Shown: positions 2,497 to 54,528, counted from the first letter of the stretch. The stretch is DNA of 64,000 nt from Minisyncoccota bacterium (GCA_041389005.1 JAWKSR010000001.1:38465-102464); one strand, 5' to 3'. Notes: a model not told the origin generated them from the letters alone. A program made the numbers and translations.

Positions 2497-2505
2497 TCAA
2501 GTTTC

Positions 2506-6076: not shown

Positions 6077-6130
6077 TGTTGGGGAAAAAGCGTGCGTTTT
6101 TGCAAAGGTACTCACGTACAATAATGGTGT

Positions 6131-6595: not shown

Positions 6596-6610
6596 TATAG
6601 TACTAAATAC

Positions 6611-31833: not shown

Positions 31834-33327
31834 ATGTGTACCCGGTTTGTAGCAGCCGTTGTGGCGTTTTCTGTTGTGGGTTTGACCACGTTTCCAACAG
31901 TGGCTTTTGCTGATACTGACGCACCCGTCATTAGCGATGTCGAAGTGACTAAAGACAGCTCTGATACCATTACAGTTACTTGGACAACTGATGAGGAGGC
32001 TGATTCCCTCATTAACTATGGTCTCAAAGAAGATTATGGGATTGTGCGTGATCCGGTGACTGATAAGACGAGTCACTCGATCACACTTGAAAATCTTGAA
32101 GCGGGACGAACGTACTATTTTCGGGTTGTCTCTTCTGATGAAAGTGGGAACCAAGGTATCTCCGCTGACTACAAAGTGCAGCTAGATACCGCTCCAACTC
32201 AAGATGGTACGGGAGTTGGTCCGGGACAAACCAATAACCAGACGGAAAGTGAGACACAGACTGAAAGTCAAACCACTCAAGAGATTGTCGAAAAAATTCA
32301 GCAAATAACAAACCCGCAGCAGATTAAAGAGATCCAAAACGAACTTATCAAAGCAGTGGAAGGCATCACGGAGGACCTCACTATTGTTGGTCCACCAACC
32401 GTTATTCCAGAAACCATTACCGCTATTGTTAAGTGGACAACTGACCGACCAGCTAGTTCTGAGGTTCAGTTTTCTTCCGTTGATCAATACACACCTGGGC
32501 AATACGCTTTCTCACAACAGGGAACGGGAGCTGACGCAACTGAGCATGAAGTACAACTCATTGGTCTTGAGCCGTTTACTGAATATCATTTTAGAGTACG
32601 CTCTACCGATGAATACGGTATAACAGGCGAGAGTCGCGATTTCACCTTTACCACCAAAGCGTCGTTGCCAGAAATTCGTAATCTCCGCATTGTAAAGGTA
32701 GAAGAGAATGCAGCTACTCTTGCCTGGGATACCACCGTACCCGCCAAGGCAACTATTGAATATCAAGACCTCACCACCGGAGAGAAGAATTCCAAAGGAC
32801 GCCCAACCTTAGCATCTACTCACCAAATGCGAATAGCTGATCTTACGCTTGGTACTCGCTATGTTGCTTTTGTTATTGCTGAAAATGCCGGCGGTGACCG
32901 AGTCAAGAGCCAACCGATCACATTTATTACAGTGCGCGATACCTCGCCACCGATTATTTCTAATGTAACCAACGAATCAACATTGTTTCCTGGTAGTGAG
33001 TCACGAATCCAAACTATCGTAGAGTGGGCGACTGATGAAGCTGCTTTCTGTCGGATGTCATATCGGGAAGGAGTAGCCAGTGGTGTTGATCCAATCACCA
33101 TTGAACCAGAACAGATCAATTATACTGAGAAGCACGTAGAAGTGATTGTAGATTTTGCTCCGGCAACGGTGTATCAATTTTGGTTGAATTGTGAAGACGA
33201 GGCAGGGAATGGTGTCCAGTCAGAGAATTTTGTGCTTTTCACGCCGATTCAAGAAAAAAACATTATCGATCTTATCCTTGAGAACTTTGAAAGCACCTTC
33301 GGCTGGGTTAAGAATATTAGTGGGTAG
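31834..33327 (+). CDS. secreted protein with four FN3-like (purple-acid-phosphatase-N-like) repeats
   Basis: Intact 497-aa ORF; signal peptide ends in VAFA. Repeats such as PVISDVEVTKDSSDTITVTWTTDEEADSLINYG..HSITLENLEAGRTYYFRVVSSDESGN and TAIVKWTTDRPASSEVQF..HEVQLIGLEPFTEYHFRVRSTDEYG. Confidence 0.8.
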   Translation: MCTRFVAAVVAFSVVGLTTFPTVAFADTDAPVISDVEVTKDSSDTITVTWTTDEEADSLINYGLKEDYGIVRDPVTDKTSHSITLENLEAGRTYYFRVVSSDESGNQGISADYKVQLDTAPTQDGTGVGPGQTNNQTESETQTESQTTQEIVEKIQQITNPQQIKEIQNELIKAVEGITEDLTIVGPPTVIPETITAIVKWTTDRPASSEVQFSSVDQYTPGQYAFSQQGTGADATEHEVQLIGLEPFTEYHFRVRSTDEYGITGESRDFTFTTKASLPEIRNLRIVKVEENAATLAWDTTVPAKATIEYQDLTTGEKNSKGRPTLASTHQMRIADLTLGTRYVAFVIAENAGGDRVKSQPITFITVRDTSPPIISNVTNESTLFPGSESRIQTIVEWATDEAAFCRMSYREGVASGVDPITIEPEQINYTEKHVEVIVDFAPATVYQFWLNCEDEAGNGVQSENFVLFTPIQEKNIIDLILENFESTFGWVKNISG

Positions 33328-33329
33328 TT

Positions 33330-34637
33330 ATGGCAAAACCTCTTATCATCGCTCGAGATCTCGAGATCATATATAACAAAGGAAAGAGCAACGAGTTCAA
33401 GGCGCTGACTGGCGTTAATACTGATATCTATGAAGGGGAGTACATTATCCTCTTTGGAGCATCGGGGTCAGGTAAGTCTACGCTGATGTATTCCATCCAG
33501 GGTTCATTACCACCGGGGAATGGTACGTTATTGATTCGTGGTGATGATATTTACAGTTATCCCCCAGAAGAACGTGTCTACTTTCAGCGACACGTCATGG
33601 GAATCATCTTCCAGCAATTTAACTTAATCCCATCACTAACTGTTTTGGACAACGTAGCGCTCCCCATGATCTTTTGTGACGCTGATAAGAAGACCCGTGA
33701 TCGGCGCGCTCAGTCTTTGCTCGATCGCTTTGGTGTCGGTATGGTTTCTCACAAGATTCCGGCCATGCTTTCTGGTGGTCAGCAACAGCGCGTTTCAGTA
33801 GCGCGTTCAATGGTAAACGATCCAAAGATTCTGTTGGCTGATGAGCCAACTGGTAACCTCGACTCTGTCTCAACGCAACAAGTTATGGATAAGATAGATG
33901 AGATTAATACATTTGACCGGCGTACTATTATTATGGTGTCTCATAACGCTGCCCATCTTTCTTATGCTCATCGCGTGTACTATCTTAAAGACGGACGCAT
34001 TGTGCGCGAAGTTGTGAACCCGCAGCGTAAGCAGATTAAGCCGGTCAAAGAAGGGGAGACCATTGTGACAGAATTAGAGCAGTTGGCTCGTTTGTTCCCG
34101 TATGATTCGATTGAGACTCTGCGGGTAAAAAGCTTGACTAATTATCTGACCCAAGATTACACGTATGATCAGCTTATACGGCTCGAGCGGTCACTGCGCT
34201 TTTTGATTACCGGTAAGGTAGACAGGCGAGCCTTTATCCGTTCCTTAATCTTACCGTACGAAGAAGGGGGAGTTGGAGTCGACCAAAAGACCGCTAAAGA
34301 AATGGCCGCCCGATCTACACGGATTATCGACCAGGCGGATGATATCAGGCGGTATCGTGCTCGCCCAGAAAATGACAAGATGTTCTTCAACCAACACCAT
34401 TTTGCAGAACGGATGCAGGAGCATTTACTGAAGACTTTTCACATGAAGCTGAAGAAGGCACAAGATGAGAATCTGATTGAATTGATTGCCGATCGAGTGA
34501 CTGGTGTGGCGAGTGATGACGAATTTAATGAGCGACTTATGAAAGGTGTCACTGTCGGAGGTTTAGGTTTGGCAGAAAAGCAAGCTGACGAATTAACACG
34601 CTATTTTGAAAAACTTATGCCCAGGGTGTGGATGTAA
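33330..34637 (+). CDS. ABC transporter ATP-binding protein (MacB/LolD/FtsE-like) with ~200-aa C-terminal extension
   Basis: Walker A GASGSGKSTLM, Q-loop, signature LSGGQQQRVSVARS, Walker B ILLADEPTGNLD, H-loop VSHN. The ATG lies 2 nt after the upstream stop. Residues ~225-435 are an unassigned helical extension. Confidence 0.9.
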   Translation: MAKPLIIARDLEIIYNKGKSNEFKALTGVNTDIYEGEYIILFGASGSGKSTLMYSIQGSLPPGNGTLLIRGDDIYSYPPEERVYFQRHVMGIIFQQFNLIPSLTVLDNVALPMIFCDADKKTRDRRAQSLLDRFGVGMVSHKIPAMLSGGQQQRVSVARSMVNDPKILLADEPTGNLDSVSTQQVMDKIDEINTFDRRTIIMVSHNAAHLSYAHRVYYLKDGRIVREVVNPQRKQIKPVKEGETIVTELEQLARLFPYDSIETLRVKSLTNYLTQDYTYDQLIRLERSLRFLITGKVDRRAFIRSLILPYEEGGVGVDQKTAKEMAARSTRIIDQADDIRRYRARPENDKMFFNQHHFAERMQEHLLKTFHMKLKKAQDENLIELIADRVTGVASDDEFNERLMKGVTVGGLGLAEKQADELTRYFEKLMPRVWM

Positions 34638-34675
34638 GCTACAAAAGCTAATTAATGTATAGATAATATAAAAGT

Positions 34676-35881
34676 ATGCGTACACAAGACCTAGGACAAC
34701 TATCGACTCGAGCATTTAAGACCAATCCAATGCGTACCTGGTTGACCATTCTTGGTATGGGTGTTGGAACTGGCGCGGTCGTGGTCTTGGTAGGTTTAGG
34801 TTTTGGTCTGCAACAGATAATCTTGGAGCAGATTGTCTTTGGAGACCTTGCTTTCTTTGGGTGTTACCGCCACTGGCGCCCAGAATTTAAAGCTTACCCC
34901 AGAAACAGTCGAGCGGTTTGAACAACATGAAAATGTTCTTGATGCGGCACCGTTGGCTCGCTTCCCGGCTTTAATCACCTTCAAGGGTCTGACTGGGAAT
35001 GTATTCATTCAGGGAGTCGAGCCGCCGTACATTCGCTACGCTGGTATTACGGCGACTGCCGGGAGGTCTTTACTGACGATGATGCGGGAGATGAGAACAC
35101 CGTTATGCTTTCACCAGCGGTTTTAAAACTCTTTGGTATTGAAGATACAGAATCATTTGTCGGGCAAAAAGTGAGTTTTCGTATTCTAGTGCCACTCGGA
35201 GATGGTAGTGAAGAGGTGAGTGAGGTGATTGTAGACAAAGAATACACTGTCCGGGGTATTACTAAAGAAGAGGGAGTCTTAAATGCACTGATTATGTTAC
35301 CCGAGTTGCGTAATCATGTTGGTATCACTGAGTTTGAGCGTATTCAAGTACGCGTTGATACCAATGAGTCGTTGCCAATTGTCGAGAATGATTTAATCGA
35401 GCAAGGGTATCGGGTCACCGCTCTTTCTAAGACGGTGGAACAAGCTTCTAAAATCTTCCAAGGTGTTCAGATCGTGTTAGCGACCTTCGGTGGCATCGCG
35501 CTCCTGGTGTCCGCCATTGGTATGTTCAACACGATGACCGTGACGTTGCTTGAGCGAACCAAAGAGATTGGTATTATGCGCACCATCGGAGCGTCGCCGT
35601 CTGATATTAAATACCTGTTTGTGTCTGAATCTATTATCGTAGGTTTTTTGGGCGGTCTTTCAGGGATTATTATGGGTGTAGTATTGGGAGTGAGTATCAA
35701 CATCTTGCTCAACGTGGTCGCCAGTCAGTTTGGTGGACAAGCCGTCAAATTATTCTCGTTCCCGCTCACATTTCTGTTTTTTATCGCGCTTTTCTCTGCG
35801 ATCGTAGGATATCTAACGGGTATTTTCCCAGCCCGCCGTGCGTCAGCACTGAATCCGCTTGATGCTATTCGGTACGAATGA
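34676..35881 (+). pseudogene. ABC transporter permease, FtsX/MacB type (two frame breaks)
   Basis: N-terminus RAFKTNPMRTWLTILGMGVGTGAVVVLVGLG (ORF 34676), periplasmic-domain part in ORF 34833, and C-terminus in ORF 35105 (LERTKEIGIMRTIGASPSDIKYLFVSESIIVGFLGGLSGIIMG..PARRASALNPLDAIRYE). The three ORFs overlap end to end. Confidence 0.85.
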
Positions 35882-36067: not shown

Positions 36068-37927
36068 ATGTACAACAACAACGAGCACCCGTCGTATATA
36101 CACACGGCCGGGAAAGTCACTGTGGTCACCACCCTCCTGGGGACTGCAGTATTTGCCTTGGTGTTTCTTTTGAACATTGGTCAGAAGGAATTTCAAACGG
36201 CAGAAGCACAAAGTCAGGCAACCACATCTGTTTTGGTATTGAATACACCACCACAGTGGACGCTTAATGCGTATGAAGTGACAGAGTCTTCAACCTCCAC
36301 ACCAACCAATTCCGGTGATGATGTGCAGTGGTCAGCGATTGCAACAGACTCCAATGCTGAACCATACTGGCTTTTGGTTTGTAGCAACAATGCCACTCCA
36401 ACTCCAGGAACCAGTACCTCTACTCCAACCTGTGGAACTGGTGCTACCCAGTGGGCAGTCTCAGCTACTACCACTAGCGGTGCGCTGGCGGTCGCAGCAA
36501 CTACTACCACTGAAGTAGCACCGTTTGCAGAAAAGCAAGATTGGTACGCCTGGATCTGTGACGCGATTGACTTAAACGCTCGTTGTAACAACACTCCAAC
36601 CAATGGTCTCTCCGCCACTAACTCATCACCTTTCCATGTAAACAGCCGACCAGTCTTCACCGCGTTCTATGATGACTCACCGGCGGTGCCAGGATCGGTT
36701 GTTACTTTTACCTCAACTTCGTCTGATTCCGATACAGTGGGTGGAGCAGATACACTGCAGCTCATTGTTTGTAACGAGGCAGACTACAACAGTGCTACCA
36801 ATGCCTGTGGAGCTGGCGGTACTTTAGCGACTTCAACCTTTGTTGTGAGTGACGCAACCGCTACCTATACCATAGTTATCCCTACTCAAGATCAGGACTA
36901 TACTGCCTATGGGTACGTTGTTGACGAACATGGTCATGAGGCATCTGGCGGTTCACAAGGAACTGACGCTACGTTGACGGTAGACAATATTGCACCAACA
37001 GTTGCCGCTGCATCAATTGTTATCAACGGTGGTTCTGACATGGTTCTTACCACTGAATCAGGAGAAACTACCGGCTTTACCCTTGATTTCGTTGCTACTG
37101 ATAATAACAGTTGTGAAAATGCCGCCACTACTGACGAGATTGTAGACTATACCGTGTCCCTCTATCGAAATGGCTCTGGTGTGAGTAGTACCACTTGTGA
37201 TGCAGAAGGTAGTGGTGCGTATGATCCCAACAACTGTTATCAAAGTGAAGTGGGAGCAGCCGTCTGGAATCTTTCTTGTACGGCTTCATCAACTAGCTGT
37301 ACAGGACCGACTGACACTACACAGTTATTCGAATGTACGTTCCCGTTGTGGTATGTAGCTGATCCAACTGATGGTGGTGCTACTAACACCGTACACTTTG
37401 CCCTAGACTGGTCAGCGGAAGTAAATGCTGTTGATGATGATAATGCCACTGGTACTGATTCAGAAGCTTCAACCGGACAAGAATTAAATAGTTTGCTTGC
37501 CTTTGCCCTCAACACGCTCCAGATTCCGTATGGAGAACTTGAACCGGGCAACGATACCGGCACGCTTTCAGCCACCACTTCGATTGCAGCAACTGGTAAC
37601 GTTGGTCTTGATGAAGAGTTGACTGGTGAGTCTATGTGTACAACCTACAGTGGTGTGACGCCATGTCCAACTTCAGCTACCTCTACCATCCCCGAAACTG
37701 AGCAAGAGTTTGCAACCTCAGAGTTGGCGTACGGGCTAGGGACGGCACTTTCTTCAAGTACGCAGCAAGAATTGGAGATCAATGTCTCTAAGACCACCAG
37801 TACTTCGACACCAGCAACCGGGCTCACCTATTGGGGTATTGCAGTACCGGCTACCATTAGTCTTGCCGGTCTCTATACCGGAGAAAACACTTTCTACGCT
37901 GTCGTGAGCGAACCGGGTGACTGGTAA
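36068..37927 (+). CDS. membrane-anchored/secreted surface protein sharing its C-terminal domain with the giant protein
   Basis: Intact 619-aa ORF with N-terminal TM VTVVTTLLGTAVFALVFLLNI; T/S-rich. The C-terminal ~300 aa (IAPTVAAASIVINGG .. LTYWGIAVPATISLAGLYTGENTFYAVVSEPGDW) align by eye with 30790-31573. Confidence 0.8.
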   Translation: MYNNNEHPSYIHTAGKVTVVTTLLGTAVFALVFLLNIGQKEFQTAEAQSQATTSVLVLNTPPQWTLNAYEVTESSTSTPTNSGDDVQWSAIATDSNAEPYWLLVCSNNATPTPGTSTSTPTCGTGATQWAVSATTTSGALAVAATTTTEVAPFAEKQDWYAWICDAIDLNARCNNTPTNGLSATNSSPFHVNSRPVFTAFYDDSPAVPGSVVTFTSTSSDSDTVGGADTLQLIVCNEADYNSATNACGAGGTLATSTFVVSDATATYTIVIPTQDQDYTAYGYVVDEHGHEASGGSQGTDATLTVDNIAPTVAAASIVINGGSDMVLTTESGETTGFTLDFVATDNNSCENAATTDEIVDYTVSLYRNGSGVSSTTCDAEGSGAYDPNNCYQSEVGAAVWNLSCTASSTSCTGPTDTTQLFECTFPLWYVADPTDGGATNTVHFALDWSAEVNAVDDDNATGTDSEASTGQELNSLLAFALNTLQIPYGELEPGNDTGTLSATTSIAATGNVGLDEELTGESMCTTYSGVTPCPTSATSTIPETEQEFATSELAYGLGTALSSSTQQELEINVSKTTSTSTPATGLTYWGIAVPATISLAGLYTGENTFYAVVSEPGDW

Positions 37928-37949
37928 AAATAGAACAAAACAAAACTCC

Positions 37950-37987
37950 ACAACCGCCGTTATCCCAATGGCGGTTGTTGCGTTTTA
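37950..37987 (+). terminator. rho-independent-type terminator
   Basis: ACAACCGCC-(11-nt loop)-GGCGGTTGT followed by TGCGTTTT. Confidence 0.65.
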
Positions 37988-38035
37988 GCGTTATTTTTCC
38001 GATAATTATAAACAAGGCGCTTCGCGCATATTTTC

Positions 38036-38987
38036 ATGCTTAGGAAAAGTACAGCCCTGTTGCTTTGTTTGTTGCTACTCAGTTGATTGGTTGAATCTTG
38101 CCCATGCTGGTTTTGGTATAACTCCTCCCTATGTACACGCAGCACGAGTCTGACCAGGAATTCTGTGTATGAACAAGAAATCCTTATGGTCCGTAGCGAC
38201 CCGACACGGGATCTTAAAGCTGTTATGAAGTAGATGCTCCGGAGATTGCTTCCTGGATTGAGATGTCGGAGAAAAGTATTCCATTACCAAAAGGAAACCA
38301 AAGTGTACCACTAACTGTACGGGTGACTGTGCCAGCAAATGCTGACTTCACCCGGTACGAAGGGGTGATGCGCATTAAGACGGCTACTCCTGATGACTCT
38401 GTTTCAGCTGGAGCGGTAAGTATTTCTCTGGGCGCGCAAGTAGATATCGATCTAACGGTAATTGACAAAGAGATTGAAGATTTTCGAGTCCGCAAGATAT
38501 CACTACCAGATCTAAACGAAGGACATAAACTCGGCTGGCTCTACTTCCCAGGCAAGATACGTTTTAAGATGCTCCTTGAAAACACTGGAAACGTAGATGT
38601 GGCACCATCTGAAGTTGCTTTCAATATCTATGATGCCTCGGGCAAAGCTCTGCTGAAGAGACTGCCCACACAAACCGTATAACTAAGGTGGCACCGTTTG
38701 CAACTGAGGAAGTGGAAGCGCATGTACCAACTCGTTTACCAGCTGGTAGCTATATTGCCCGCTATACCATTATGAATGGCGAGGAGGTGAAACAAGAAGG
38801 GGAATTGTCACTCAGTATATTGCCATATGGCAGTGTACAGGCGGCTGGTTATGGTTTCTTGGTTTCTCACACACCAACTTACATTATCTTTGATCGGTTT
38901 CTGTTATTGCGCTCATTTCACTGTTGTTCTGGTATTCACGGCGCGTGCCGCGCGGTTGATCATCATGTTGTTAAAACGGTCCTATAG
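38036..38987 (+). pseudogene. WxL-interacting-protein-like two-domain membrane protein, heavily frame-broken
   Basis: ATG 38036 gives MLRKSTALLLCLLLL. Fragments: GITPPYVHAA, VYEQEILMVRSDPTRDLKAV, ORF 38263-38682 (IPLPKGNQSVPLTVRVTVPANADFTRYEGVMRI; LENTGNVDVAPSEV), and ORF 38688-38987 (PAGSYIARYTI), followed by a hydrophobic C-terminal segment. At least 5 frame changes. The 3' end is uncertain. Confidence 0.55.
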
Positions 38988-40079
38988 TTCAGTGGCGCAT
39001 GTGCCTTCTGGTATTTCATCGCAGTAGCGGGGCAATTTGCACACGCGCAGTATGTTGCTACCACGACGCTGCAGCTGAGTAATTGTGGAGACTCCGTGGT
39101 ATCTGGGTCGGAGGCATGTGATGTGCCGGGTGAAACAGGTGAGTACAGTACCACTATTGCTGGTCGGCAGTGTGATGTAGATTGTCAGTTCGGACCATAT
39201 TGCGGCGATGGTATTTTACATACTATTTACAATGAAGAGTGTGATGACGCCAACAACACCAGCAATGACTTTTGTAGTGCTGAATGCAAGATCGAGTTTT
39301 CTGGTTCCGGTGGAGGCGGTGGAGGCGGTGGAGGCGGTGGTTCTGGTGGTAGTAACACGGAAATTGGAGATACCAGTGTGCAGGTAGGAGGTCTTGCCTA
39401 CCCGCAACGGACGGTCAACGTCCTTTTAGATGGTGAGTCTGTTGGCGATGTACGAGCTGATAGTGATGGAGAGTTTTCACTGTCAATAGATGCAGAGCCG
39501 GGTACTGCGACCTTGGGTTTTTGGTCAACTGACGCCTTTGGCACTCGTTCTATAACCTATTCAACAACGTTTGACGTCACGCAAGGTGCAGTAACAAACG
39601 TCAACGGCGTGTTATTGCCGCCAACAGTACGAGTGAATGATAATGAAATAAATCCAGGTGATATAGTCACTATCTCTGGTCAGGCACCACCCAACCGAGA
39701 GGTCAGTGTGTATGTAAATGACAGTGTAATTGCTGAAACGACTGCCAGTGGGGATGGTGATTGGTCAATTGCTTTTGACACTACTTCACTCACGCCAGCG
39801 GAGTACACGATTAAAGCTCGCTATACCACTGGTTCTAGCGCTCTCAAAACGGAAAGTGGCTTTAGTAGTGCGGTCGCGTTATTTGTTGGAGTTGATGGTA
39901 CCGTGGCACGTCCGTCTGACTTGAATCGCGATACGCGTATTAACCTGATTGATTTCTCCATCCTTATTTTTTGGTGGGGCACAGCAGGTGGTGATTCTGA
40001 TCCTCCGGCTGATATCAGCCAAAATGGGCGTGTGGGTCTCGAGGACTTTTCTATCCTTCTCTTTAACTGGACTGGTTAA
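38965..40079 (+). pseudogene. secreted protein: Cys-rich repeats, poly-Gly linker, two Ig-like units, dockerin-like pair (paralog of the 4193-6076 C-terminus)
   Basis: ORF 39096-40079 is open upstream to ~38990, encoding FSGACAFWYFIAVAGQFAHAQ (signal peptide). The nearest ATG, 38965, is in another frame. CGDSVVSGSEACD..CGDGILHTIYNEECDDANNTSNDFCSAECK resembles Myxococcus-type Cys-rich repeats. G12 linker. DLNRDTRINLIDFSILIFWW..DISQNGRVGLEDFSILLFNWTG. Confidence 0.75.
39309..39341 (+). repeat. tandem 9-bp repeat (GGTGGAGGC x3 plus partial) encoding poly-Gly
   Basis: Read directly. In-frame, so copy-number change would only alter linker length. Confidence 0.8.
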
Positions 40080-40100
40080 AACCCGACTAATGTCGGGTTT
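40077..40100 (+). terminator. rho-independent-type terminator overlapping the stop codon
   Basis: AAAACCCGAC-TAAT-GTCGGGTTTT. Confidence 0.7.
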
Positions 40101-40103
40101 TAA

Positions 40104-40195
40104 CCGATCCTGCCGAGAGGCAGGAATTCACGATGCCGTCTAGGCGAGGGAATAGGTGGGATCCAGTATTAAACGAAGGCACTTTCGCCAAGAAG
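40104..40195 (+). repeat. intergenic repeat element, copy B
   Basis: Aligns with 31596-31687 with about 9 mismatches. Hairpin 1 is conserved; hairpin 2 carries two non-compensated changes. Confidence 0.75.
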
Positions 40196-40611
40196 AAACT
40201 CTATACTTACGTATCTTTCGTTCAAAATCATCCGTTCGCGCTGAGAAACGTCTCCCCATGCGCTTTGCACACCGGTGTTTTCACGTATATTCTGTGCATA
40301 AGTAACCCACTCTTTTCTTTAGTGACAAGCTACAATGTACGAGTACTTGCCTTAGAAGATGGCCTTTAGACCGTCGTGTCTGGCGTCACTTTTAGCAAGA
40401 TGGGAACAAAAAATTGTGTGTTGTCGCATTGCTAGACGTGGCGCTGGAAGACACCAACAGCCGGGTGTTATGAGTGCAAGTATGCTTACGCTGTTTTTAA
40501 GATTCGGAGTGGAGACCGAATCTTATCCGGGGCACCCACCACGTGCTCCATTGGTACTGCTGTTGTCGCACAGACAGTATCCTGCTGTAAGCTAATATAT
40601 GTAGAGCTAAT

Positions 40612-41749
40612 ATGTTTCGCACGGGAACAACGTCCGTTCGAATGCTCCAAGCTGTATCGCTCACATTGAGTCTCGCTGTCCTTGTTTGGTCATTGGGACT
40701 CTCACCAGTATCGTTAGCCCAAGCGGCTAGCCTTACCGATGTCAAAAATACACTCACTGATTCAGATATCAGTGCAGCATCAGATCATGCTATCCAGTTT
40801 GTTATCCCCTCCGGCTCTGCCGGAGTGGAAGCAGGGGAGACCATTGTGGTCACCTTTCCAGCTGGGTTCACTATGGGGTCAGTCGGCGTAGCTGACATAG
40901 ATCTCGAGGTAGATGGTGTTGATGAGACACTTGCTGGTTCTCCTTCAGGAGCAACCTGGGGTGTCGGTGTAGCTGGACAGGACATCACCTTCACTAGTGG
41001 TAGTGCTACCATTGGTGCGAATGCAACGGTGACCGTAAAGTCGGCACCAACGCTGATGGTGGTTCAAATCAGGTAACCAACCCTGGTTCGTCTGGCTCGT
41101 ATGAGTTTGACATCGTATCAGGTAGTGGGGCGAATAACGACACCGGTTCAACCCAGTCGCTATCCTCGACAATGTCGGCGTAACTGCAAGTGTTGATACT
41201 ATTTTCAACTTCACTGTTGGCGGATTCCCATCTGTCACCGGTGTAGCGGTTAACGGCACCACTACCACAGCAACTTCTTCAGCTACGGAAATACCATTTG
41301 GCACGCTTAGTGCGGGTGAAGTGGTAACCGCAGCACAACTCTTGAATGTTTCAACTAACGCCAGTCAAGGTTTTGTTGTGACTATCGAGCAAGATCAAAA
41401 CTTACTATCGTCTACTGGCGCTGACATTGATGGCTTCGCAAATGGTGCGTACACCAACACACCAGCAGCGTGGTCTTCACCAAGTGCCACCATCGGTAAT
41501 GAAGATACCTATGGTCACTGGGGTATCACATCAAGTGATGACCTTAATGGCGGTGAGTTCAGTGCTGATCTATGGGTTGCTGCTAGTACGACCCACGGGA
41601 AATCTTCGAAGAATGATGGACCAGCTGACGGTGTGACCGACAGTGTTGGTTCCACCACCGTTGGTTTCCAGATTGAGGTGTCATCACTCCAGGAAGCTGG
41701 AGATGATTACTCCACAACGCTGACGTACATCGCGGCACCAACGTTCTAA
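40612..41749 (+). pseudogene. paralog of the 1363-2496 fibre protein (WxL-like C-terminus), at least 2 frame breaks at 41040-41320
   Basis: ORF 40612-41076 (LTDVKNTLTDSDISAASDHAIQFVIPSGSAGVEAGETIVVTFPAGF) and ORF 41321-41749 (GHWGITSSD..GDDYSTTLTYIAAPTF). The bridging residues (KIGTNADGGSNQVTNPG; VAILDNVGVTASVDTIFNF) lie in other frames. Confidence 0.75.
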
Positions 41750-41776
41750 CCACTACGTACACAGTACGTAGTACAT

Positions 41777-41799
41777 GCGATCAAGCTATGCTTGATCGC
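41777..41799 (+). terminator. 10-bp stem-loop after the fibre paralog
   Basis: GCGATCAAGC-TAT-GCTTGATCGC. No U-run follows. Confidence 0.4.
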
Positions 41800-41943
41800 A
41801 GGAAATCCATATACGTTTCCTAAAACGGTAAATAGCTTCGGAGCATACAAAAGTCCTATCTCCCACCACGAGAGGGGCTTTTTGCTTATTACTTTACACA
41901 CGAGTAACGTAAGGAGACCTTAGTAAAAGGCTATAATAGACCC

Positions 41944-42938
41944 ATGAGAAGTGTACTCGGTGGTGTTTCTTTAGCGGTATGTCTTTTGGTTTTGGCGGTG
42001 CCTGCACACGCGGCTACCTTGTACTTCGATCCGTACCAAAGTGAAATATATCCTGGAGATACGGTCTCCGTGGCGGTGCAGTAGATACCGATGAGGAGAG
42101 TGTATCAATGTTGTCGGCGCAGTGATAACGTATGATCCAACTATTGTGCCAGTCGATGTCTCGCGCGGACAATCGAATTACTCCAATCTGGGTGGAAGAA
42201 CCGACAATTGATACCGAAAATCACCAGATTACATTTGCCAGCGGTATTCCGAATGGCTATTGCGGACGGATTGCTGGAGACCCCCGATTGAGCAATATAG
42301 TACTCGAATTACTATTCCAAGCACCAGCATTTACCATTAAAACGGTAGAGAGTGAAAACACAGATATTGCCACCATTGCTTTTACAGATGCAACTCAAGT
42401 ACTTTTAAATGACGGCACGGGCACTCCAGCGCCTTTAACCACACTGGCAGCTGAGATATACAAACACGCTAAGCCACGAAGTGAGCCAGTTGATGAGTGG
42501 TTGCAGCGAGTACTGCAGGATACTATTCCACCAAATAAATTTAGTGTTACGCTTGATAGCAATGCGTCTATTTACGCTGGTCGTTATTACGTCACTTTCA
42601 ATACTACCGATAAGCAGTCAGGAATTGACCACTACGAGATTATGGAAGAACCAATTGACGACTTCGATCTCTTTGCGTGGGGTGGTGTTGATGCTCCGTG
42701 GCGTGAAGCTCGTAGGTCCTACTTATTGAAGGACCAAAGTCTTAATAGCACCATTCGCGTAAAAGCAGTTGATAAAGCCGGGAATGAATACGTGGCGGTG
42801 TATGTACCAGAAGAAGATATGCGAGGGGCGTCTGATCGCGATTTGGCAGGTTGGGGGTTGATTGTTGCAGGACTACTTTTGATTGGAGCAGCGATTGCTG
42901 CCGTGGTGTCAGTACCGCATACGATTGCGTCGTTATGA
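41944..42938 (+). pseudogene. membrane-anchored cohesin-like protein (frame breaks at ~42080-42130)
   Basis: ATG 41944 gives MRSVLGGVSLAVCLLVLAVPAHAATLYFDPYQSEIYPGDTVSVAV. Then GAVITYDPTIVPVDVSRG.. and ORF 42132-42938 (ITPIWVEEPTIDTENHQITFASGIPNGYCG), with C-terminal TM GLIVAGLLLIGAAIAAVV. Confidence 0.6.
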
Positions 42939-42969
42939 AACAACATTCCCAGATGAAACATAATATTAC

Positions 42970-44708
42970 ATGACCCGTACCTTTCATTTCAGCATAAAAA
43001 TGCTATTCATCGTTAGTATGCTATTAAGCTGGCAGGCAGTTGAAGCAGCGACACTCTCGCTTTCTCCCGGGACTGGCGTCTATACTGCCGGCGGCACTTT
43101 TACCGCTCGAGTAGTAGTAAACACTGCTGGTGAGTCTGTAAACGCCGCTGAGGAACCTTACGGTTTGATACGAATAGTCTCTCAGTAGTTGGTCTGACCA
43201 AGGGTTCGATTTTTAGTTTGTGGGCAGTTGACCCGACTTATTCCAATAGTGCTGGGACGATTAGTTTCGGCGGAGGATCACCAAGTGGGTATAGTGGCGG
43301 TGCGGGTACGGTTCTCTCGGTGACATTTCGAGCTAAGACAGCCGGGACTGGTAAGGTGACGTTTTCTAACGGCTCAGTCTTAGCAGCGGATGGTCGTGGT
43401 ACTAATGTGCTTACATCAATGAACAGTGGTTCGTACACTATCGCCGCCGCTGAAGTGCCCGCTGAACCAGAAATAATCGAGTATGTTGCTCCACCTGACA
43501 CCCCGGGTGCAGCTACTATCACCTCAACCACGCACCCTAACAGTGACGGCTGGTTCTTGAGCAACACAGCGGAACTGGAATGGACCGTACCAAGTGATGT
43601 GACTGCTGTGCGTACACTGCTTAGTGATAGCGCTGGCAGTATTCCTACCAAAGTATATGAACCCCCAATTAGCAGTCTTACAATCAACGATTTGGAGGAA
43701 GGGGTGCAGTATTTCCACTTGCAGTTAAGAAATGCTGATGGGTGGGGGCGTGTCGCACACTATCGCCTAGCGGTCGACACAACAGACCCAATCTTTGATC
43801 TTGAGTTACCAGAGGCAGCAGACCTCTCCAATCCAACTCAGATATTTAACTTTAGCGCGAGCGATACACCGTCCGGGATAGCCAAATATACTGTGCAGAT
43901 AGATGGTGGGGAGGTAGTGGATTTCATACCGCAGTCTGCTACTAGTAGTTATGTGACGCCGGCGCTCTTGCCTGGACAGCACAGTATGGTGGTTGAGGCA
44001 TTTGACCAAGCGGGAATAGTGTAGTTGACACCATTACATTTACTGTATTGGCGTTTGACCGTCCTGAATTCACTGAGTATCCAGTTCGTCTGAATGCTGG
44101 TGTGATTCCAGTGATTAAAGGTGTGACTAGACCACAGTCAGTAGTAACTATCTCACTAGAAAAGCAAGATGGTAGTGTTGCGCAAGAATACGAGGTCACC
44201 GCTGACGCGGCGGGAGTCTTTACATTTATCCCTGACGGCGCGTTGACCAACGGAGTGTATGAATTAACTGCCACTGCCATAGACACATATGGAGCCGCAA
44301 AGTGAGCGGTCTGAACCTGTGCGTATTGTCGTTGAAAAACCTGGGTACTTAACAATTGGAACTTGGGCAGTAAATGTATTGTCCGTATTGATACCACTCC
44401 TTGCGTTAGCAGGTTTTACTGCTGTTTGGAGTACTCTACGTGTGGCGGCGAAGCAAAGCTGTTGGTGTGGTGGTTAAGAAAGAGACAGCTGAGGCACTCC
44501 AGGTAGTTGAGAAACAGTTTGTAAACATGCACAAGGTGCTCGAGAAAGAAGCTAAAAATATGGCGGCTTCTCGGCGAACAAAAAAACTTACCAAAGCCGA
44601 GACTTCACTCATTGAGTCGGTGCGGATGGGACTTGCTGATGCTGAAAAAACTATCAAAAGGAGGTAGCAGATGTCGATGATATTATAGAAAAAATAAACT
44701 CACCATGA
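42970..44708 (+). pseudogene. membrane-anchored cohesin-like protein, paralog of 6611-8132 (at least 5 frame breaks)
   Basis: ATLSLSPGTGVYTAGGTFTARVVVNTAGESVNAAE; FSLWAVDPTYSNSAGTISFGGGSPSGY..VTFRAKTAGTG; Ig-like units; TM in ORF 44289-44477; charged tail. With one A added at 44656-44659 the frame ends in TGA 44706-44708, overlapping the next ATG (ATGA). Confidence 0.65.
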
Positions 44709-45355
44709 AATCCACACCGGTAATTAGTATTGTTGCTCTAATAGTATTTTGTCTAGTACTTTCCTACGGTTACGTTCGTTACACACAGGCTGCTACTCGA
44801 GCAACACTCGAAGCTCATATAGGGGAAGTCGAGTTAACCTTACGCGAAACCGCAGAAAATCTAAAGAACAACACTGAAGATGAGTTGGTTGCAACTTATG
44901 TTACTGATTGTTCTAATCGTACGAGAACTCAATTTGACATGCATCTTGATACACTGGCTTCATTATCCACGGCAGAATTAGAACAAACCGAGCTATTGTT
45001 TGAAGCGTGCGCTGACTATTTTGCTCACAAAAAACGAGCTGAAGTCGAAAAACTGCGGATGGAATTACGTTCATATGAACATTTAGTAGATACGTATGAT
45101 GTTATTGCACCAACAGCAAATCGTGTATGGCAACTTGAGGATTGGCACTTGTTTTTAAGTTTCCAGGAACAACTGGCCGCTCTTCTAGAGGCACAGGTCC
45201 CAATTCAGCAAGAAATTATTATCTTACTCAAGTCAGGTGTCCCAGAAGGTGATCCAGCGATTAAAAGTCAGGTTGAAGCAGCCCAGGAAATTACTCAAAC
45301 TGCCACAGTTACTACACGGCAGATGAGTAGTGTCTACACACGGCTGAGCCAATAG
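44705..45355 (+). CDS. hypothetical N-terminally anchored helical protein
   Basis: Intact 216-aa ORF. TM PVISIVALIVFCLVLSYGYV, then a helical E/L/Q-rich sequence. The start overlaps the upstream stop. Confidence 0.65.
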   Translation: MKSTPVISIVALIVFCLVLSYGYVRYTQAATRATLEAHIGEVELTLRETAENLKNNTEDELVATYVTDCSNRTRTQFDMHLDTLASLSTAELEQTELLFEACADYFAHKKRAEVEKLRMELRSYEHLVDTYDVIAPTANRVWQLEDWHLFLSFQEQLAALLEAQVPIQQEIIILLKSGVPEGDPAIKSQVEAAQEITQTATVTTRQMSSVYTRLSQ

Positions 45356-45360
45356 TACGT

Positions 45361-46106
45361 ATGCTTCGAGTACTGCAACGTTGGTTATACTACACATCAT
45401 TCATTTTTCGCACCCGCCGGTTTCGTACGGTTCGCTATGCATTCCCGGTTTTGATAACTGCTTTCTCGTTGATTGGCGCTGCCGTTTTGTTGCAAGGCAA
45501 TGCATCATATTTACGTATTGAATCTTCTCGTAGTGCGGTACAGCCAGGAGAAACTTTTTCTTTAGATTTGTATGCCGGGGCTCACGTACCAGTAAATGCT
45601 ATAAATATTGAGATTACATACCCAGATGAAGTTATTTCAGTTGAAAGTATCGATATTGGTAAGTCAGTAATCACTATCTGGACACAGGATCCGCATGTAG
45701 AGGGTGATCGTATAATTTTTAGTGGCGGAACCTACCGCAAGGGTTTTATTGGTGAGCATCTTATCGCCACCATTGATGTAAAAGCTCGCGAAGATGGTAC
45801 CGCTGTCTTTAGTGCTGAAAACATCACGTTTTTGGCTGGAGATGGCACTGGAGAGGCGGTTTCACTCTATGCCAGCAAAGATCAGACGGTAGCCGTAGCG
45901 GTAAACGCTACAGAAGGAACCTTGACCGGTACCGTTGACGTCTATGTATACACTGATATAGATGCTGACGGTGTCGTGACGATGACAGATATTCGGCTTT
46001 TATGGCAGCTTGGCACGATAAAGACCGCACGTTTGATTTTAATGGTGATAATCGAATGAGTTTTCGGGATTTTGCCATTATTTTGGCAGATTCTTTTAAT
46101 CGTTAG
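45361..46106 (+). pseudogene. membrane-anchored protein with cohesin-like domain and dockerin-like C-terminus (one frame break ~46020)
   Basis: TM VLITAFSLIGAAVLL. LRIESSRSAVQPGETFSLDLYAGAHVPVNAINIEITYPDEVISVESI..ITIWTQDP..IIFSGG..IDVKAREDG. DIDADGVVTMTDIRLLW, then in another frame FDFNGDNRMSFRDFAIILADSFNR with stop at 46104-46106. Confidence 0.65.
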
Positions 46107-48693: not shown

Positions 48694-49623
48694 TTGATAG
48701 CCAAACCGACTGTCGGGGTAGTGGTTTGGTACGATCAGTGGACAGCAGGAGACACCGGCGATTATATCCATATTGCTACCTATGACAGTGGCTCTGATGC
48801 TATTTGGTACAACCGACTTGATACGGCGAGTGACACTTTACTGATGGGAAGTTCACCAGTTAATGCATCAACAAATTCTGGACAGGGTGGATCGTTTGCT
48901 TCAGGGGCAAACAAACCTTCTATTGCAAAGGGAACTGATGGCACGGTTTATGTTGCCATTGCTGATAATACCGATTCGTTTGTCATCGAGTGTAGTGCCA
49001 GTTGTAACAACACGACCGGTTGGACAGAAACCGGCACCAGCCCCCTTGACGCTACACCAGACTGGCCGTACCTACTACCACTTTCTGGAGGTGACATATT
49101 ACTTATAAACCGTGACGTATCAACCAACGATCTTGAATCCAAAGTATGGAATAACAGTAGTTGGGACGCTACGTTTACCAGTATTGATATCAATGCCCCA
49201 GAAAATAGCACCTACGATGTTGGTATGGCAGCCGTGTACAATCCAAATACCGATGAGGTGTATTTGGCTTACGCTGCTGATAATGCCACTTTAGGAACAG
49301 ACAATGATATTCGTACGGCAGTCTACTCAAGCGGTTCTTGGACTAGTGGACCAGATATCTTAACGGATGATGCTCGTGGTGTTCTTCAAGTAGCAATGAG
49401 TATTGACGAAAATACTGATGATATTTACGTTGCCTACACTATCGGTACTGGCACTACCCATGATGTCTACTGGGCGAGTTCAACATCAGCCTTTAATAGT
49501 TGGGGAGCAGAACAAGGACCGGTCAACGCTAGTAGCGATAACATTTATGGTATCGATCTGAACTATCTCGATGATCAACGTATGTTTGTATCCTGGTACG
49601 AAGCTAGTACGGACGGGATGTAG
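48694..49623 (+). CDS. second giant protein fragment: beta-propeller-like domain
   Basis: Just upstream, in another frame: CVYFKTTDGGATWGSEVVVD (Asp-box S/T.DGG.TW). The ORF carries repeated beta-strand motifs (DIYVAYT, EVYLAYAAD, TVYVAIADN). Confidence 0.65.
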   Translation: MIAKPTVGVVVWYDQWTAGDTGDYIHIATYDSGSDAIWYNRLDTASDTLLMGSSPVNASTNSGQGGSFASGANKPSIAKGTDGTVYVAIADNTDSFVIECSASCNNTTGWTETGTSPLDATPDWPYLLPLSGGDILLINRDVSTNDLESKVWNNSSWDATFTSIDINAPENSTYDVGMAAVYNPNTDEVYLAYAADNATLGTDNDIRTAVYSSGSWTSGPDILTDDARGVLQVAMSIDENTDDIYVAYTIGTGTTHDVYWASSTSAFNSWGAEQGPVNASSDNIYGIDLNYLDDQRMFVSWYEASTDGM

Positions 49624-49659
49624 GGAGACACGATTGCCAACATCGCGCCGGCAACCGTT

Positions 49660-51051: not shown

Positions 51052-51460
51052 TGACAAATGTGGCAGTGCTTGCCCCAAAATATGGCACTACCATTGATTT
51101 CAATTTACCAGATGGAGGCAATGATGTAGTGGTCTCAGGCAACGGCTCAACCGCTCCGTCAATATAATTGACATTACGGGGTCTACCACGATTGCTGGAC
51201 CGATTGTAACCCAGACTCATTACCACTGGCGTAATGAGTAATGGTTCAGAAACCAGCGCCACTTCTGCTACTGGCGGAGTGGAGGTTACCGTTCTTACTG
51301 ACTTTGCGCTTTCTACTCCTGTGCGTGTACGCTTTGGTCTCTCCAATAAAGGCGCGACTTCCACGCAAGCGGCGCAGTATCAGCTCGAACCACGGTATCA
51401 AACTCACATCGTGCAGTAATGTGGTACGGTATGGACGGCTGTTGATACTCTCAGTGATGC

Positions 51461-53092: not shown

Positions 53093-53173
53093 ATTACAAT
53101 ACGGCGTGCAGGACACAACCTGTTCAGCGGTGGCAAGTTGGATTGATGTTGGGGCAGTTGGCTCAGGCGAAAT

Positions 53174-53629
53174 TTGGCGCGGGTACGATACCGCTTTGTC
53201 AGACGGTACTGCACGTCTCTGGTGATCCCCCCAACTGGCGGAGACTTACTTATTGCTACTGCTGATGTTGCGGGGCGATTTGAAGAACAGAATCCTTCAA
53301 CTGCTAACCCGTACTCAGCTGGAGATGGGGAAGACACCGAGTATGACTGGGTGGTCGAACAAAATGGCGCGCGACAGCGTACCACCTACTGCTTCCGCAT
53401 GATCAACAGCGGCGATTCACCGCTTGACGGGTATCTTGATTACCCACAATTGCGTACAGAAGGTTATACCCCCGTAACACAAGATTGGCAGTGGTTCGAT
53501 GATGAAACGAATGAAACACCAAGCAGTCCACTGGCTGCCACGAACACAGCACCTTCAGCTACTGAAAAAGGAAATACCATTAAACTACGTGTTTCTGTAG
53601 CAGAGCTCAAGGAACTTACCCCAAGCTGA
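53174..53629 (+). CDS. second giant protein fragment: end of module 3, start of module 4
   Basis: EYDWVVEQNGARQRTTYCFRMINSGDSPLDGYLDYPQLRT, then DWQWFDDETNE..NTIKLRVSVAE. Confidence 0.7.
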   Translation: MARVRYRFVRRYCTSLVIPPTGGDLLIATADVAGRFEEQNPSTANPYSAGDGEDTEYDWVVEQNGARQRTTYCFRMINSGDSPLDGYLDYPQLRTEGYTPVTQDWQWFDDETNETPSSPLAATNTAPSATEKGNTIKLRVSVAELKELTPS

Positions 53630-54328: not shown

Positions 54329-54526
54329 GTGCTAGGAGCAGGTTCAACGCGATTTGCGCCGAATGATAGCTACGCAGCTGCCAGCACAACTCCAGCTGAG
54401 ATTATGTACAGCTCCACCCCGACTACCGACACAGAAGATGTTGTGTATAAATTACAGATCACTGACCAACAGCCAGCCGGAGATTACGCCACGAACATTG
54501 TATACTTAGTAATACCAGTGTTTTAG
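54329..54526 (+). CDS. second giant protein C-terminal fragment (WxL-like tail)
   Basis: YAAASTTPAEIMYSSTPTTDTEDVVYKLQITDQQPAGDYATNIVYLVIPVF parallels WVAASTTPREIFSHDGP..VGYQIEISPLQEAADDYSTTLTYIATPTF of 1363-2496. Confidence 0.7.
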   Translation: MLGAGSTRFAPNDSYAAASTTPAEIMYSSTPTTDTEDVVYKLQITDQQPAGDYATNIVYLVIPVF

Positions 54527-54528
54527 TT

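Follow-up and report, generated by a model that had tools for sequence, protein, structure and literature searches.

Two gene cassettes flanking a giant surface protein gene in Candidatus Paceibacterota are probably modules of a Pam-type pilus

The stretch of DNA analyzed here, 64,000 nucleotides from a Minisyncoccota bacterium (GCA_041389005.1, JAWKSR010000001.1:38465-102464; the window, with positions counted from its first nucleotide), carries nearly all of its coding sequence on the plus strand, as found in a survey of its open reading frames (ORFs). The parts of the cassettes, of the region between them, and of locus C, together with the leaders, lie on that strand unless stated otherwise. 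The window holds two cassettes of genes for surface proteins, cassette A at 1363-8132 and cassette B at 36068-46103, which share a fibre-like protein, a WxLIP-like protein, a dockerin protein, and a membrane-anchored cohesin protein. A preliminary description had taken cassette B for a rearranged copy of cassette A. The analysis suggested that both cassettes are probably modules of a chaperone-assisted pilus assembled by donor-strand exchange, of the type known as Pam, in Candidatus Paceibacterota.

The gene order described earlier for cassette A was borne out, with a fibre, a WxLIP_PGBD protein, a transmembrane protein, a protein with Big_6 and Dockerin_1, HSP20, and a protein with Cohesin and a transmembrane segment. 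The first gene (1363-2496) encodes the "fibre," here called pilin A, a protein of 377 amino acids with a signal peptide, an N-terminal beta-sandwich, a linker strand (residues 175-195), and a C-terminal domain resembling that of Pam pilins; a terminator-like hairpin lies 3′ of it (2518-2541, no strand assigned). The second (2585-3672) encodes a chaperone-like WxLIP homologue, WxLIP-A, with a signal peptide, two immunoglobulin (Ig)-like domains, and C-terminal transmembrane helices; frame breaks lie near 2650 and 3335, and the signal peptide begins at 2585 in another frame than the main ORF (2649-3672). A small protein with transmembrane segments at both ends and a helical center (3715-4140) is kept in A-type cassettes, with 44-56% identity to its positional orthologues and no family match in Pfam or NCBIfam. 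DockA (4193-6076; 627 amino acids) is composed of a signal peptide, a pilin-type N-domain with linker strand, an Ig domain, a G/S linker, two Big_6 domains, and a dockerin. A gene for a small heat-shock protein, HSP20 (6131-6595), is likewise kept inside the cassette; its product is 80% identical over 154 amino acids to the L024 orthologue, and the orthologues carry PF00011. Finally, CohA (6611-8132; 494 amino acids) has a signal peptide, a cohesin, Ig-like domains, a transmembrane helix, and a charged cytoplasmic tail, in which the frame breaks between about 8040 and 8090.

For cassette B, the order WxLIP-like protein, dockerin protein, fibre, cohesin-like protein, and cohesin protein was also given correctly, but these genes are not intact ORFs, and their start coordinates hold only when frame breaks are read through. 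Furthermore, the cassette does not end at 44708, as had been proposed, but extends to 46103 with the genes for protein Y and Coh3. Only X (36068-37927) and Y (44705-45355) are uninterrupted in this locus; the other genes were stitched across frame breaks with intact orthologues as guides. Protein X, encoded by the first conserved gene of the cassette, has an N-terminal transmembrane segment and is rich in Thr/Ser and Cys. It is 51-71% identical to its orthologues and 32% identical to the C-terminal part of the giant surface protein described below (window 30788-31555), with no match in Pfam or NCBIfam. The chaperone-like WxLIP homologue WxLIP-B (38036-38960), with at least four frameshifts, is 64-76% identical, when stitched, to intact orthologues of 312-349 amino acids and has no Pfam match. 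DockB (38965-40079), with a frame break at its N-terminus, consists of a signal peptide, DUF4215 Cys-rich repeats, a G linker, two Big_6 domains, and a dockerin, and is 59-67% identical to its orthologues; a terminator-like hairpin read from the sequence (AACCCGAC-TAAT-GTCGGGTT, then T-rich) lies 3′ of it at 40080-40103. Pilin B (40612-41749; about 379 amino acids) has frameshifts near 41037 and 41156. Coh2B (41944-42938), with two to three frame breaks near its 5′ end, combines a signal peptide, a divergent cohesin-like domain, an Ig-like domain, and a C-terminal transmembrane helix, with 44-58% identity to orthologues and 25-34% to CohA. CohB (42970-44667), with at least four frame breaks, has a signal peptide, a cohesin, Ig-like domains, a transmembrane segment, and a cytoplasmic tail; it is 49-57% identical to intact orthologues (577-591 amino acids), and the L020 orthologue carries PF00963. 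Protein Y, helical with an N-terminal transmembrane segment, is kept in B-type cassettes at 25-36% identity to its positional orthologues and has no family match in Pfam or NCBIfam. Coh3 (45361-46103; frame break near 45993) has an N-terminal transmembrane segment or signal peptide, a cohesin-like domain, and a C-terminal dockerin.

The fibre family comprises more than 2,100 homologues, and the source record, which belongs to a metagenome-assembled genome, lists the fibre as hypothetical. For comparison, 17 loci with a fibre homologue were sampled (one genome per species), together with loci L018-L024 on the contigs of five fibre homologues. The closest known relatives come from the Pam system, in which cryo-electron microscopy of Ca. 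Mycosynbacter amalyticus filaments identified the pilins PamA and PamB (bioRxiv 10.64898/2026.03.03.709456). According to this preprint of June 2026, the signal peptide of a Pam pilin is followed by a beta-sandwich N-domain, a linker strand, and a C-domain with a truncated Ig-like fold that accepts the linker of the neighboring subunit, i.e., donor-strand exchange; conservation is highest in the linker and in the binding site of the C-domain. The NCBIfam model NF058581 (CPR_Pam_pilin_C) matches pilin A at residues 222-377 (E=2.6e-5, 24.4 bits) and pilin B (E=7.1e-5, 22.9 bits), in both cases over model positions 3-148 of 148, and is matched by 19 of 22 family members. Full-length homologues that are 35-41% identical, in loci L015, L016, and L017, score 72.9, 80.7, and 149.6 bits and exceed the curated cut-off of 55 bits. 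Thus, membership of the window pilins, which stay below this cut-off, rests on transitive homology. In L017, the gene for the bona fide Pam pilin is followed by genes for a Dockerin_1 protein (35.9 bits) and cohesin-like proteins.

The AlphaFold2 model of pilin A (predicted local distance difference test score, pLDDT, of 81.6) shows a signal helix and two beta-sandwich domains, with a helix at residues 8-31, strands at 40-183, a low-confidence stretch at 188-192, and strands at 197-375; ahead of the mature N-terminus lies an AQA motif. Column conservation in the family is highest in the linker (0.85 at residues 175-195), followed by the C-domain (0.80) and the N-domain (0.69), and the linker sequence RVAILDNVDVTA is among the five most conserved blocks. 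Foldseek searches with the model returned generic two-Ig adhesins and pilins with low full-length template-modeling scores, which alone are not diagnostic. Collectively, the family match and the domain architecture suggested that the fibre is most likely a relative of the Pam pilins and a secreted two-domain major pilin.

In the Pam system, the pilins are accompanied by the PapD-like chaperones PamC and PamD, which have a transmembrane helix at the C-terminus; PamT is the tip pilin, PamR is a terminator anchored by a transmembrane helix, and PamE is a further component (bioRxiv 10.64898/2026.03.03.709456). In the window, a fibre-like gene or domain adjoins a chaperone-like gene in all three loci that carry one (cassettes A and B, with one chaperone-like gene each, and locus C, described below, with two), as it does in L015-L017. 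WxLIP-A matches Pfam WxLIP_PGBD (DUF916, PF06030) with 33.5 bits against a cut-off of 27.3, and its second domain has no Pfam match. The earlier label "WxLIP-like" was therefore right at the domain level, but the likely functional frame is a pilus, with a pilin and a chaperone. The AlphaFold2 model of the orthologue P0122 (pLDDT 85.2) has two beta domains and helices at 284-316 and 335-358. Its top Foldseek matches are Enterococcus faecium WxLIP structures, 9i25_C (E=7e-13) and 9i1y, followed by the chaperones CfaA, Caf1M, FimC, PapD, and CsuC (E from 1e-10 to 1e-8). The family profile also matches EfmWxLIP1 (E=3.3e-5); a literature search found no paper on the E. faecium WxLIP structure. The WxLIP-like protein is thus modeled as a membrane-anchored chaperone of the PapD/WxLIP fold, and by analogy these proteins would correspond functionally to the Pam chaperones.

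The same matches could be read in another way, with the loci encoding a nonfilamentous surface complex of the WxL/Csc type in which the fibre is a divergent WxL-like wall protein held by WxLIP and cohesin-dockerin pairs add further surface proteins. The match to WxLIP_PGBD above cut-off and the E. faecium WxLIP as best structural and sequence match agree with such a complex, as does the position of the fibre-family domain, which lies at the C-terminus in every case, in small as well as large proteins beside WxLIP-like genes, as in WxL clusters. However, Pfam found no match in pilin A and 22 family members even at E<=10, be it to WxL, TasA, or pilin families; the family does match the model of the Pam pilin C-domain, and some of its members exceed the cut-off; and the extreme conservation of the linker strand fits polymerization. 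A WxL-type complex is on this evidence distinctly unlikely. WxL domains carry two Trp-x-Leu motifs; the pilin has a single conserved W-x-L (HWGL, residues 300-303), and its C-terminal TLTYIATP resembles the second motif.

The dockerin and cohesin components are supported at the family level. DockA matches Dockerin_1 (PF00404) with 30.5 bits against a cut-off of 22.9 and also matches Big_6; DockB scores 20.9 bits for Dockerin_1, slightly under the cut-off; and each has two calcium-binding DxNxDG...DFSIL repeats. CohA matches Cohesin (PF00963) with 29 bits against 24.1, and Coh2B and Coh3 show only remote similarity (24-27%). Coh3 also carries a dockerin-like pair of calcium-binding repeats, its L020 orthologue has a weak Dockerin_1 match, and its combination of a cohesin-like domain with a dockerin is possibly an adaptor-type arrangement. 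An alignment of family profiles (hhalign) linked DockA to the pilins: residues 32-189 of the fibre family correspond to residues 26-205 of DockA (99.1%, E=1.3e-18). This match covers the N-domain and linker and nothing beyond, and DockA is without a pilin C-domain.

Cohesins and dockerins are known from cellulosomes, and it could be proposed that the membrane cohesins display dockerin-bearing carbohydrate-active enzymes, with the fibre as unrelated cargo. Cohesin and Dockerin_1 matches above Pfam cut-offs and the resemblance of Coh3 to an adaptor scaffoldin, with its cohesin-like domain and dockerin, would suit this proposal. But neither Pfam nor NCBIfam found a catalytic or carbohydrate-binding domain in DockA, DockB, or Coh3, the dockerin proteins having Ig-like, DUF4215, and pilin-type N-domains only, and in every locus the cohesin and dockerin genes are embedded among pilin and chaperone genes. 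Enzyme display is hence very improbable.

The state of the reading frames bears on whether cassette B is functional. Many long genes of the window fall into successive ORFs of differing frame. Reassignment of a stop codon was rejected as a cause, as reading any single stop as sense yields no long ORFs and the breaks are changes of frame. With about 15 frame disruptions in about 8 kb, cassette B has the highest density in the window, compared with about 5 in the 6.8 kb of cassette A and none in the neighboring gene X (1.86 kb); the genes affected encode WxLIP-B, DockB, fibre B, Coh2B, CohB, and Coh3. Such a distribution would be expected if cassette B were a decaying, nonfunctional copy whose genes became pseudogenes through redundancy with cassette A. 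However, frame breaks are spread over the whole window, in the giant gene (8254-31573), in HSP20, in an FtsX-type permease gene, in which about 200 nucleotides (34900-35100) are out of frame between two indels, and throughout 38036-46103. In the HSP20 gene (6421-6445), ATTGGGGAGTAGTTT stands in place of the ATTTGGGGAGAGTTT implied by orthologues, so that −1 and +1 indels nine bases apart create an in-frame TAG; this pairing is typical of consensus errors, and this case and that of the permease gene are read as probable errors of the assembly. The break near 41037 in fibre B sits in an A-run (AAAA to AAA context); the homopolymer context of frameshifts was inspected, and only some sites could be placed precisely. 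The broken genes are 55-76% identical to intact orthologues, as are the neighbors X (71%) and dockB (67%), and the cassette genes are intact in all other genomes with A- or B-type loci. The disruptions are most likely errors of the assembly consensus, and decay of cassette B is improbable.

Between the two cassettes lie a giant surface protein gene and a set of transporter genes. The region 8254-31573 is probably one gene of about 7,770 codons for a protein with DUF2341 and Ig-like repeats, broken into many frames in this assembly, and its orthologues are called as proteins of 7,729 (L018) and 6,997 (L024/L020) amino acids. Both cassettes had been placed beside a very large surface protein gene; they flank the same one. 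It is followed at 31834-35881 by genes for an fn3 protein, an ATP-binding cassette (ABC) ATPase, and a MacB_PCD/FtsX permease, whose products are 68-78% identical to their L014 orthologues and which keep the same order in L009 and L020; as far as contigs reach, B-type loci are preceded by this set. These proteins may have a role in export or mechanotransmission for surface proteins. The ATPase is long, at 435 amino acids. Downstream of cassette B, locus C (48694-57142) encodes one or more fragmented large surface proteins with repeats related to the giant protein and an end resembling the pilin C-terminal domain (54073-54523), followed by two chaperone-like WxLIP homologues (54529-55533 and 55421-57142, the latter with a C-terminal LytR_C domain). 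The positional homologue in L013 matches NF058581 at residues 300-446.

The paired components of cassettes A and B are paralogous, as had been claimed, and pairwise alignments found homology for the fibre, dockerin, cohesin, and WxLIP-like proteins to very different degrees. The fibres are indeed very similar, with 68% amino acid identity (72% in the mature part) and 66% nucleotide identity. CohA and CohB are 37.6% identical over 372 amino acids. DockA and DockB share 43.5% identity over the last 250 or so amino acids only, and their N-terminal halves are unrelated. WxLIP-A and WxLIP-B are 23% identical over about 205 amino acids (E about 1e-6 in a tiny database), a pair that tblastn at 1e-3 did not find. 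The motifs pointed out in the preliminary description are present: both dockerin proteins end in DFSILLFNWTG, and the cohesins share FSLW..P.(F/Y)SN(T/S)AGTI(A/S)FGGGSP.

Both gene orders recur in other genomes. The order fibre, WxLIP-like protein, transmembrane protein, dockerin protein, HSP20, cohesin protein, giant gene is found in L001-L004, L018, L021, and L024. The order X, WxLIP-like protein, dockerin protein, fibre, Coh2, Coh, Y, Coh3 is complete in L009, L012, L014, and L020, and is present as far as shorter contigs reach in L005, L010, L011, and L022. In two other genomes, cassette A, the giant gene, the transporter genes, and cassette B lie on one contig (CAYXYJ010000001.1, with L018 and L009, and Logan SRR26268931_35386, with L024 and L020), in the order and spacing of the window, which indicates a conserved super-locus of about 45 kb and not a rearranged copy specific to one lineage. 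The distant loci L015-L017 have a single cassette in an A-like order of fibre, WxLIP-like protein, dockerin protein, and cohesin-like protein. Identities to orthologues exceed those to the paralogue in the same genome: 49-59% versus 43% over half the length for DockA, 57-60% versus 38% for CohA, and 46-57% (WxLIP-A) or 64-76% (WxLIP-B) versus 23% for the chaperone-like proteins.

Neighbor-joining trees with bootstrap that included the homologues from related genomes, a check proposed with the earlier description, placed the proteins of both cassettes with their positional orthologues. The cohesin, dockerin, and WxLIP trees cluster by cassette type and not by genome, with support of 93% for cohesin A and 60% for cohesin B, 90-100% for dockerin A and 100% for dockerin B, and 100% for WxLIP A and for WxLIP B; of the two locus C chaperone types, C1 reaches 100% and C2 88%. 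WxLIP-A is nearer to one locus C paralogue (33% identity; split support 60%), and WxLIP-B groups with the other (split support 74%). These comparisons support an ancient split between the A and B types. Cassettes A and B are paralogous modules of one super-locus of about 45 kb kept in related genomes, with a third module at 48.7-57.1 kb, and the origin of these modules is traced to several old events of duplication and domain exchange.

Block duplication of a surface cassette in this lineage, with one copy rearranged afterwards and the copies serving as diversifying surface modules, has some evidence in its favor: all main component types occur in both loci and are recognizably paralogous, dockerin C-terminal and cohesin motifs and an upstream 11-mer are common to them, and cohesins A and B are mutually the closest paralogue types (split support 90%). 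Nevertheless, both orders are kept with intact genes across genomes and both cassettes share single contigs elsewhere, so that B was not made as a rearranged copy in this genome; dockerin, cohesin, and WxLIP-like orthologues are far more identical than the paralogues. The reading has already failed on lineage specificity and is altogether unlikely. Of the proposed ancient segmental duplication, the paralogy and the great age stand, and simple copying en bloc does not, as WxLIP-A and WxLIP-B pair with different locus C paralogues and the dockerin N-terminal halves are unrelated. Nor does the pilin fit a diversifying surface system: the fibre is conserved, being 60-70% identical across genera, and its C-domain is homogenized in tandem copies elsewhere.

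In L006 (9962-12491) and L008 (9962-12509), the 3′ halves of tandem pilin genes are 94-100% and 82-99% identical at the nucleotide level, respectively, and the 5′ halves 46-74% in both, which indicates recent gene conversion confined to the part coding for the C-terminal domain. Between genomes, the A and B fibres differ in their relation. In CAYXYJ01, they are 53% identical; in the Logan genome, they are 78% identical and form a sister pair (100% bootstrap). Typical B-locus fibres form a clade of their own, and the window pilin B nests among A-type sequences. Its N-domain groups at 98% bootstrap with P0086, confirmed as a B-locus protein by its context, and its C-domain is closest to that of pilin A (72.6%), with 46% support for a sister grouping. 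Recent conversion between the two window genes was considered and rejected, given this low support and a uniform nucleotide identity of about 66% with no tract of high identity; any homogenization or copy replacement here must accordingly be old. The high similarity of pilins A and B can thus be attributed to constraint on the linker and C-domain together with gene conversion or copy replacement, and not to a young duplication.

Some neighboring genes are kept along with the cassettes. The HSP20 gene lies between the dockerin and cohesin genes (69-80% identity) in the window, L002-L004, L018, and L024; HSP20 is a cytoplasmic chaperone with no obvious reason to be inside cassette A. Between the genes for the small transmembrane protein and DockA, L018 has an inserted gene resembling CBS+MgtE Mg2+ transporters (12807-13799), and L024 has two FGE-sulfatase-like genes (2932-4587). 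A CorB-like Mg2+ transporter is reported near the pam operon (bioRxiv 10.64898/2026.03.03.709456). A gene for a DinB/IMS-family polymerase (29-1023) lies directly upstream of cassette A, a position kept in L018 and L021, and a PGA_cap gene of the capsule-synthesis type (60328-61428) lies near the 3′ end of the window.

Both pilin genes are preceded by conserved leaders. The region upstream of pilin A (1145-1362) has blocks conserved in 8 A-type loci, namely GTTATCAACA (1145), TATAAT (1184), GGCTGA (1235), TCTCCACA (1267), ATATGTAGAGC (1312), and TAGTTATTTA (1330). The TATAAT box is common to the A-type loci about 175 nucleotides 5′ of the ATG, and RNAalifold found no consensus RNA structure in the A-type leader. 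The pilin B leader (40458-40611) contains CAGCCGGGTGTTATG, GTATGCTTAC, a hairpin (40498-40525), and GCTAATATATGTAGAGC just 5′ of the ATG. This hairpin, found in 8 genomes (the window, L005, L009, L010, L012, L014, L020, and L022) 85-115 nucleotides 5′ of the ATG, has a loop that is invariant, N-GUGGAGA, with a closing G-C pair, and compensatory changes in 8 of its 10 stem pairs. Its covariation is 0.679, compared with 0.249 in shuffles, none of 500 of which reached it, and at most 0.196 in slid controls. The hairpin is a candidate cis-regulatory RNA element; a search of the whole window against Rfam, this hairpin included, gave no match.

The motif said to occur upstream of both fibre genes, ATATGTAGAGC, is found exactly twice, at 1312 and at 40597 rather than near 40592, and comparison of the upstream regions showed that it belongs to a leader element kept in other genomes. 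It is the form that a conserved (T)ACAACGTAGAG(C) block takes in the window; this block lies just 5′ of the ATG in B-type loci and about 40-50 nucleotides 5′ of it in the closest A-type loci. Hairpins lie 3′ of fibre A, X, and DockB, and each of the two pilin genes has the appearance of a transcription unit of its own; consensus scans for sigma-70 promoters and terminators gave counts equal to chance and were used for individual hairpins only. The A leader block TCTCCAC (1267-1273) is the exact reverse complement of the B loop GTGGAGA (40509-40515), and the GGCTGA block of the A leader is likewise complementary to TCAGCC of the B leader. This complementarity could reflect sites of a shared regulator or chance, the 7-mer being too short to interpret.

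From the homologies, predicted folds, synteny, and trees described above, a mechanism can be proposed in which the formation of filaments, the action of the chaperones, termination, and anchoring through cohesin and dockerin are drawn from domain logic. Pilins A and B would be secreted and held by the membrane-bound WxLIP-like chaperones, which would cap the groove of each subunit until strand exchange. The linker strand of one pilin would then complete the open C-terminal Ig-like domain of its neighbor, leading to polymerization by donor-strand exchange, and because the linkers of pilins A and B are nearly identical, both might enter one mixed filament. DockA may act as a terminator because it has the donor strand and lacks the acceptor domain, as do PapH and PamR; its strand would enter the last pilin, so that growth stops and the filament is capped. 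CohA, CohB, and Coh2B would be cohesins that a helix at the C-terminus retains in the membrane, and the dockerin of DockA would dock the base of the pilus onto one of them (CohA or CohB). DockA and a membrane cohesin would thereby replace the single-protein terminator and anchor PamR. DockB, with DUF4215, Big_6, and dockerin, and Coh3 might attach further dockerin-borne parts, and the locus C protein, which combines large domains at its N-terminus with an acceptor-type domain at its C-terminus, might serve as a tip adhesin.

Several observations weigh against assigning the cassettes to a Pam-type pilus. First, the window pilins score below the curated cut-off of NF058581 (24.4 and 22.9 versus 55 bits), PamA and PamB are not in the top 50 PDB matches listed by Foldseek for pilin A, and the fibre profile found no match among PDB chain sequences at E<=10. 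Second, Pam pilins are reported mainly in Saccharimonadia and Microgenomatia, and the preprint describing them makes no mention of Paceibacteria, cohesin, dockerin, DUF916, or WxL (bioRxiv 10.64898/2026.03.03.709456). Third, no PamT-like tip pilin and no PamR-like terminator were recognized in the window. PamT has one truncated Ig-like domain and no linker (NF058579), and PamR has an RbmA-like pair of FnIII domains, an N-terminal strand, and a C-terminal transmembrane helix (bioRxiv 10.64898/2026.03.03.709456). NF058579 has no match in the window proteins submitted to NCBIfam, and its sole matches, weaker and overlapping, fall on the C-domains of the pilins of L015-L017, far under its 240-bit cut-off. 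Fourth, DockB is without a pilin N-domain, so the terminator model is not directly transferable to cassette B. In addition, the trees were built from few taxa, with weak nodes for the cohesin B clade (60%) and for the sister grouping of the window pilin C-domains (46%). With these points taken into account, a Pam-type pilus assembled by donor-strand exchange is still the probable function of both cassettes.

If this is correct, it has several implications. Most Patescibacteria are uncultured epibionts whose mode of attachment to the host is a major question in the field; the description of Pam pili dates from as late as 2026 and covers a single Saccharimonadia species. A widespread and conserved Paceibacteria family of "hypothetical proteins," left unnamed because its window-type members score under the curated NCBIfam cut-off, would join the Pam pilin superfamily, and the pilus genes would share one conserved super-locus with cohesin and dockerin genes, the gene for a giant surface protein, and those for an ABC transporter. 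The model predicts which protein forms the filament, which caps it, and which anchors it. It would also provide a structural, noncellulosomal use of cohesin-dockerin pairs in pilus anchoring and a possible evolutionary bridge between the WxL clusters of Firmicutes, the Pam pili found in Candidate Phyla Radiation (CPR) bacteria, and chaperone-usher pili. We tentatively propose two ideas together: that at the base of the Paceibacteria pilus a terminator-like dockerin subunit plugs noncovalently into membrane cohesins, and that WxL/WxLIP clusters and Pam pili are homologous systems of a chaperone plus an acceptor domain, kin of chaperone-usher pili without an usher and suited to monoderm envelopes. 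In the literature, we found nothing on cohesin-dockerin in Patescibacteria pilus loci (only unrelated papers on rumen and lake metagenomes), nothing on WxL in the CPR, and nothing relevant on giant surface proteins in Paceibacteria.

Compared to the cellulosomes of Clostridia with their type I and II modules, the window system has Pfam-level cohesins, duplicated calcium-binding dockerin repeats (DxNxDG...DFSILL), and one adaptor-like protein with both. However, its cohesins are anchored by a transmembrane helix at the C-terminus, not by SLH domains or sortase, its dockerin proteins carry no enzymes, and its context is that of a pilus locus.

Compared to the chaperone-usher pili (Pap, Fim, CFA/I, Caf1, and Csu), the window system shares the fold of the chaperone and, by inference, donor-strand complementation and exchange, with a terminator that would donate but not accept a strand, like PapH. 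Patescibacteria are monoderm. The window system differs in being without an outer membrane and an usher, and its chaperone is tethered to the membrane; Pfam and NCBIfam scans found no usher-type family among the cassette proteins. Furthermore, its pilin has an additional N-domain, and an internal linker, as in Pam pilins, would serve as donor strand in place of an N-terminal extension (bioRxiv 10.64898/2026.03.03.709456).

The WxL clusters of Enterococcus, Lactiplantibacillus, and Listeria (PMC10599100, PMC9772566; PDB 9i25, 9i1y) resemble the window loci in having a two-Ig membrane protein, of which the WxLIP-like proteins are homologues. [quoted passage not shown] Unlike these clusters, the window loci have no detectable WxL domain and no LPXTG protein, and the partner of the WxLIP-like protein matches a pilin model.

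Among known systems, the Pam pilus comes nearest. The window system differs from it in several respects. First, it occurs in Paceibacteria, with pilins below the curated cut-off and without a recognizable PamT or PamR. Second, its locus includes, as integral parts, cohesin proteins with transmembrane helices and dockerin proteins, one of which has a pilin N-domain and linker. Third, its modules are duplicated around the gene for a surface protein of about 7,700 amino acids and a MacB-type transporter, and no ATP-synthase genes were found among the window proteins scanned, which did not include every ORF. Nevertheless, both systems belong to CPR hosts; both have two-domain pilins with Sec-type signals for secretion, a linker, and an Ig-like C-domain matching the Pam pilin C model; and both combine several pilin paralogues per locus with PapD-like chaperones that carry a C-terminal membrane helix and work with no usher.

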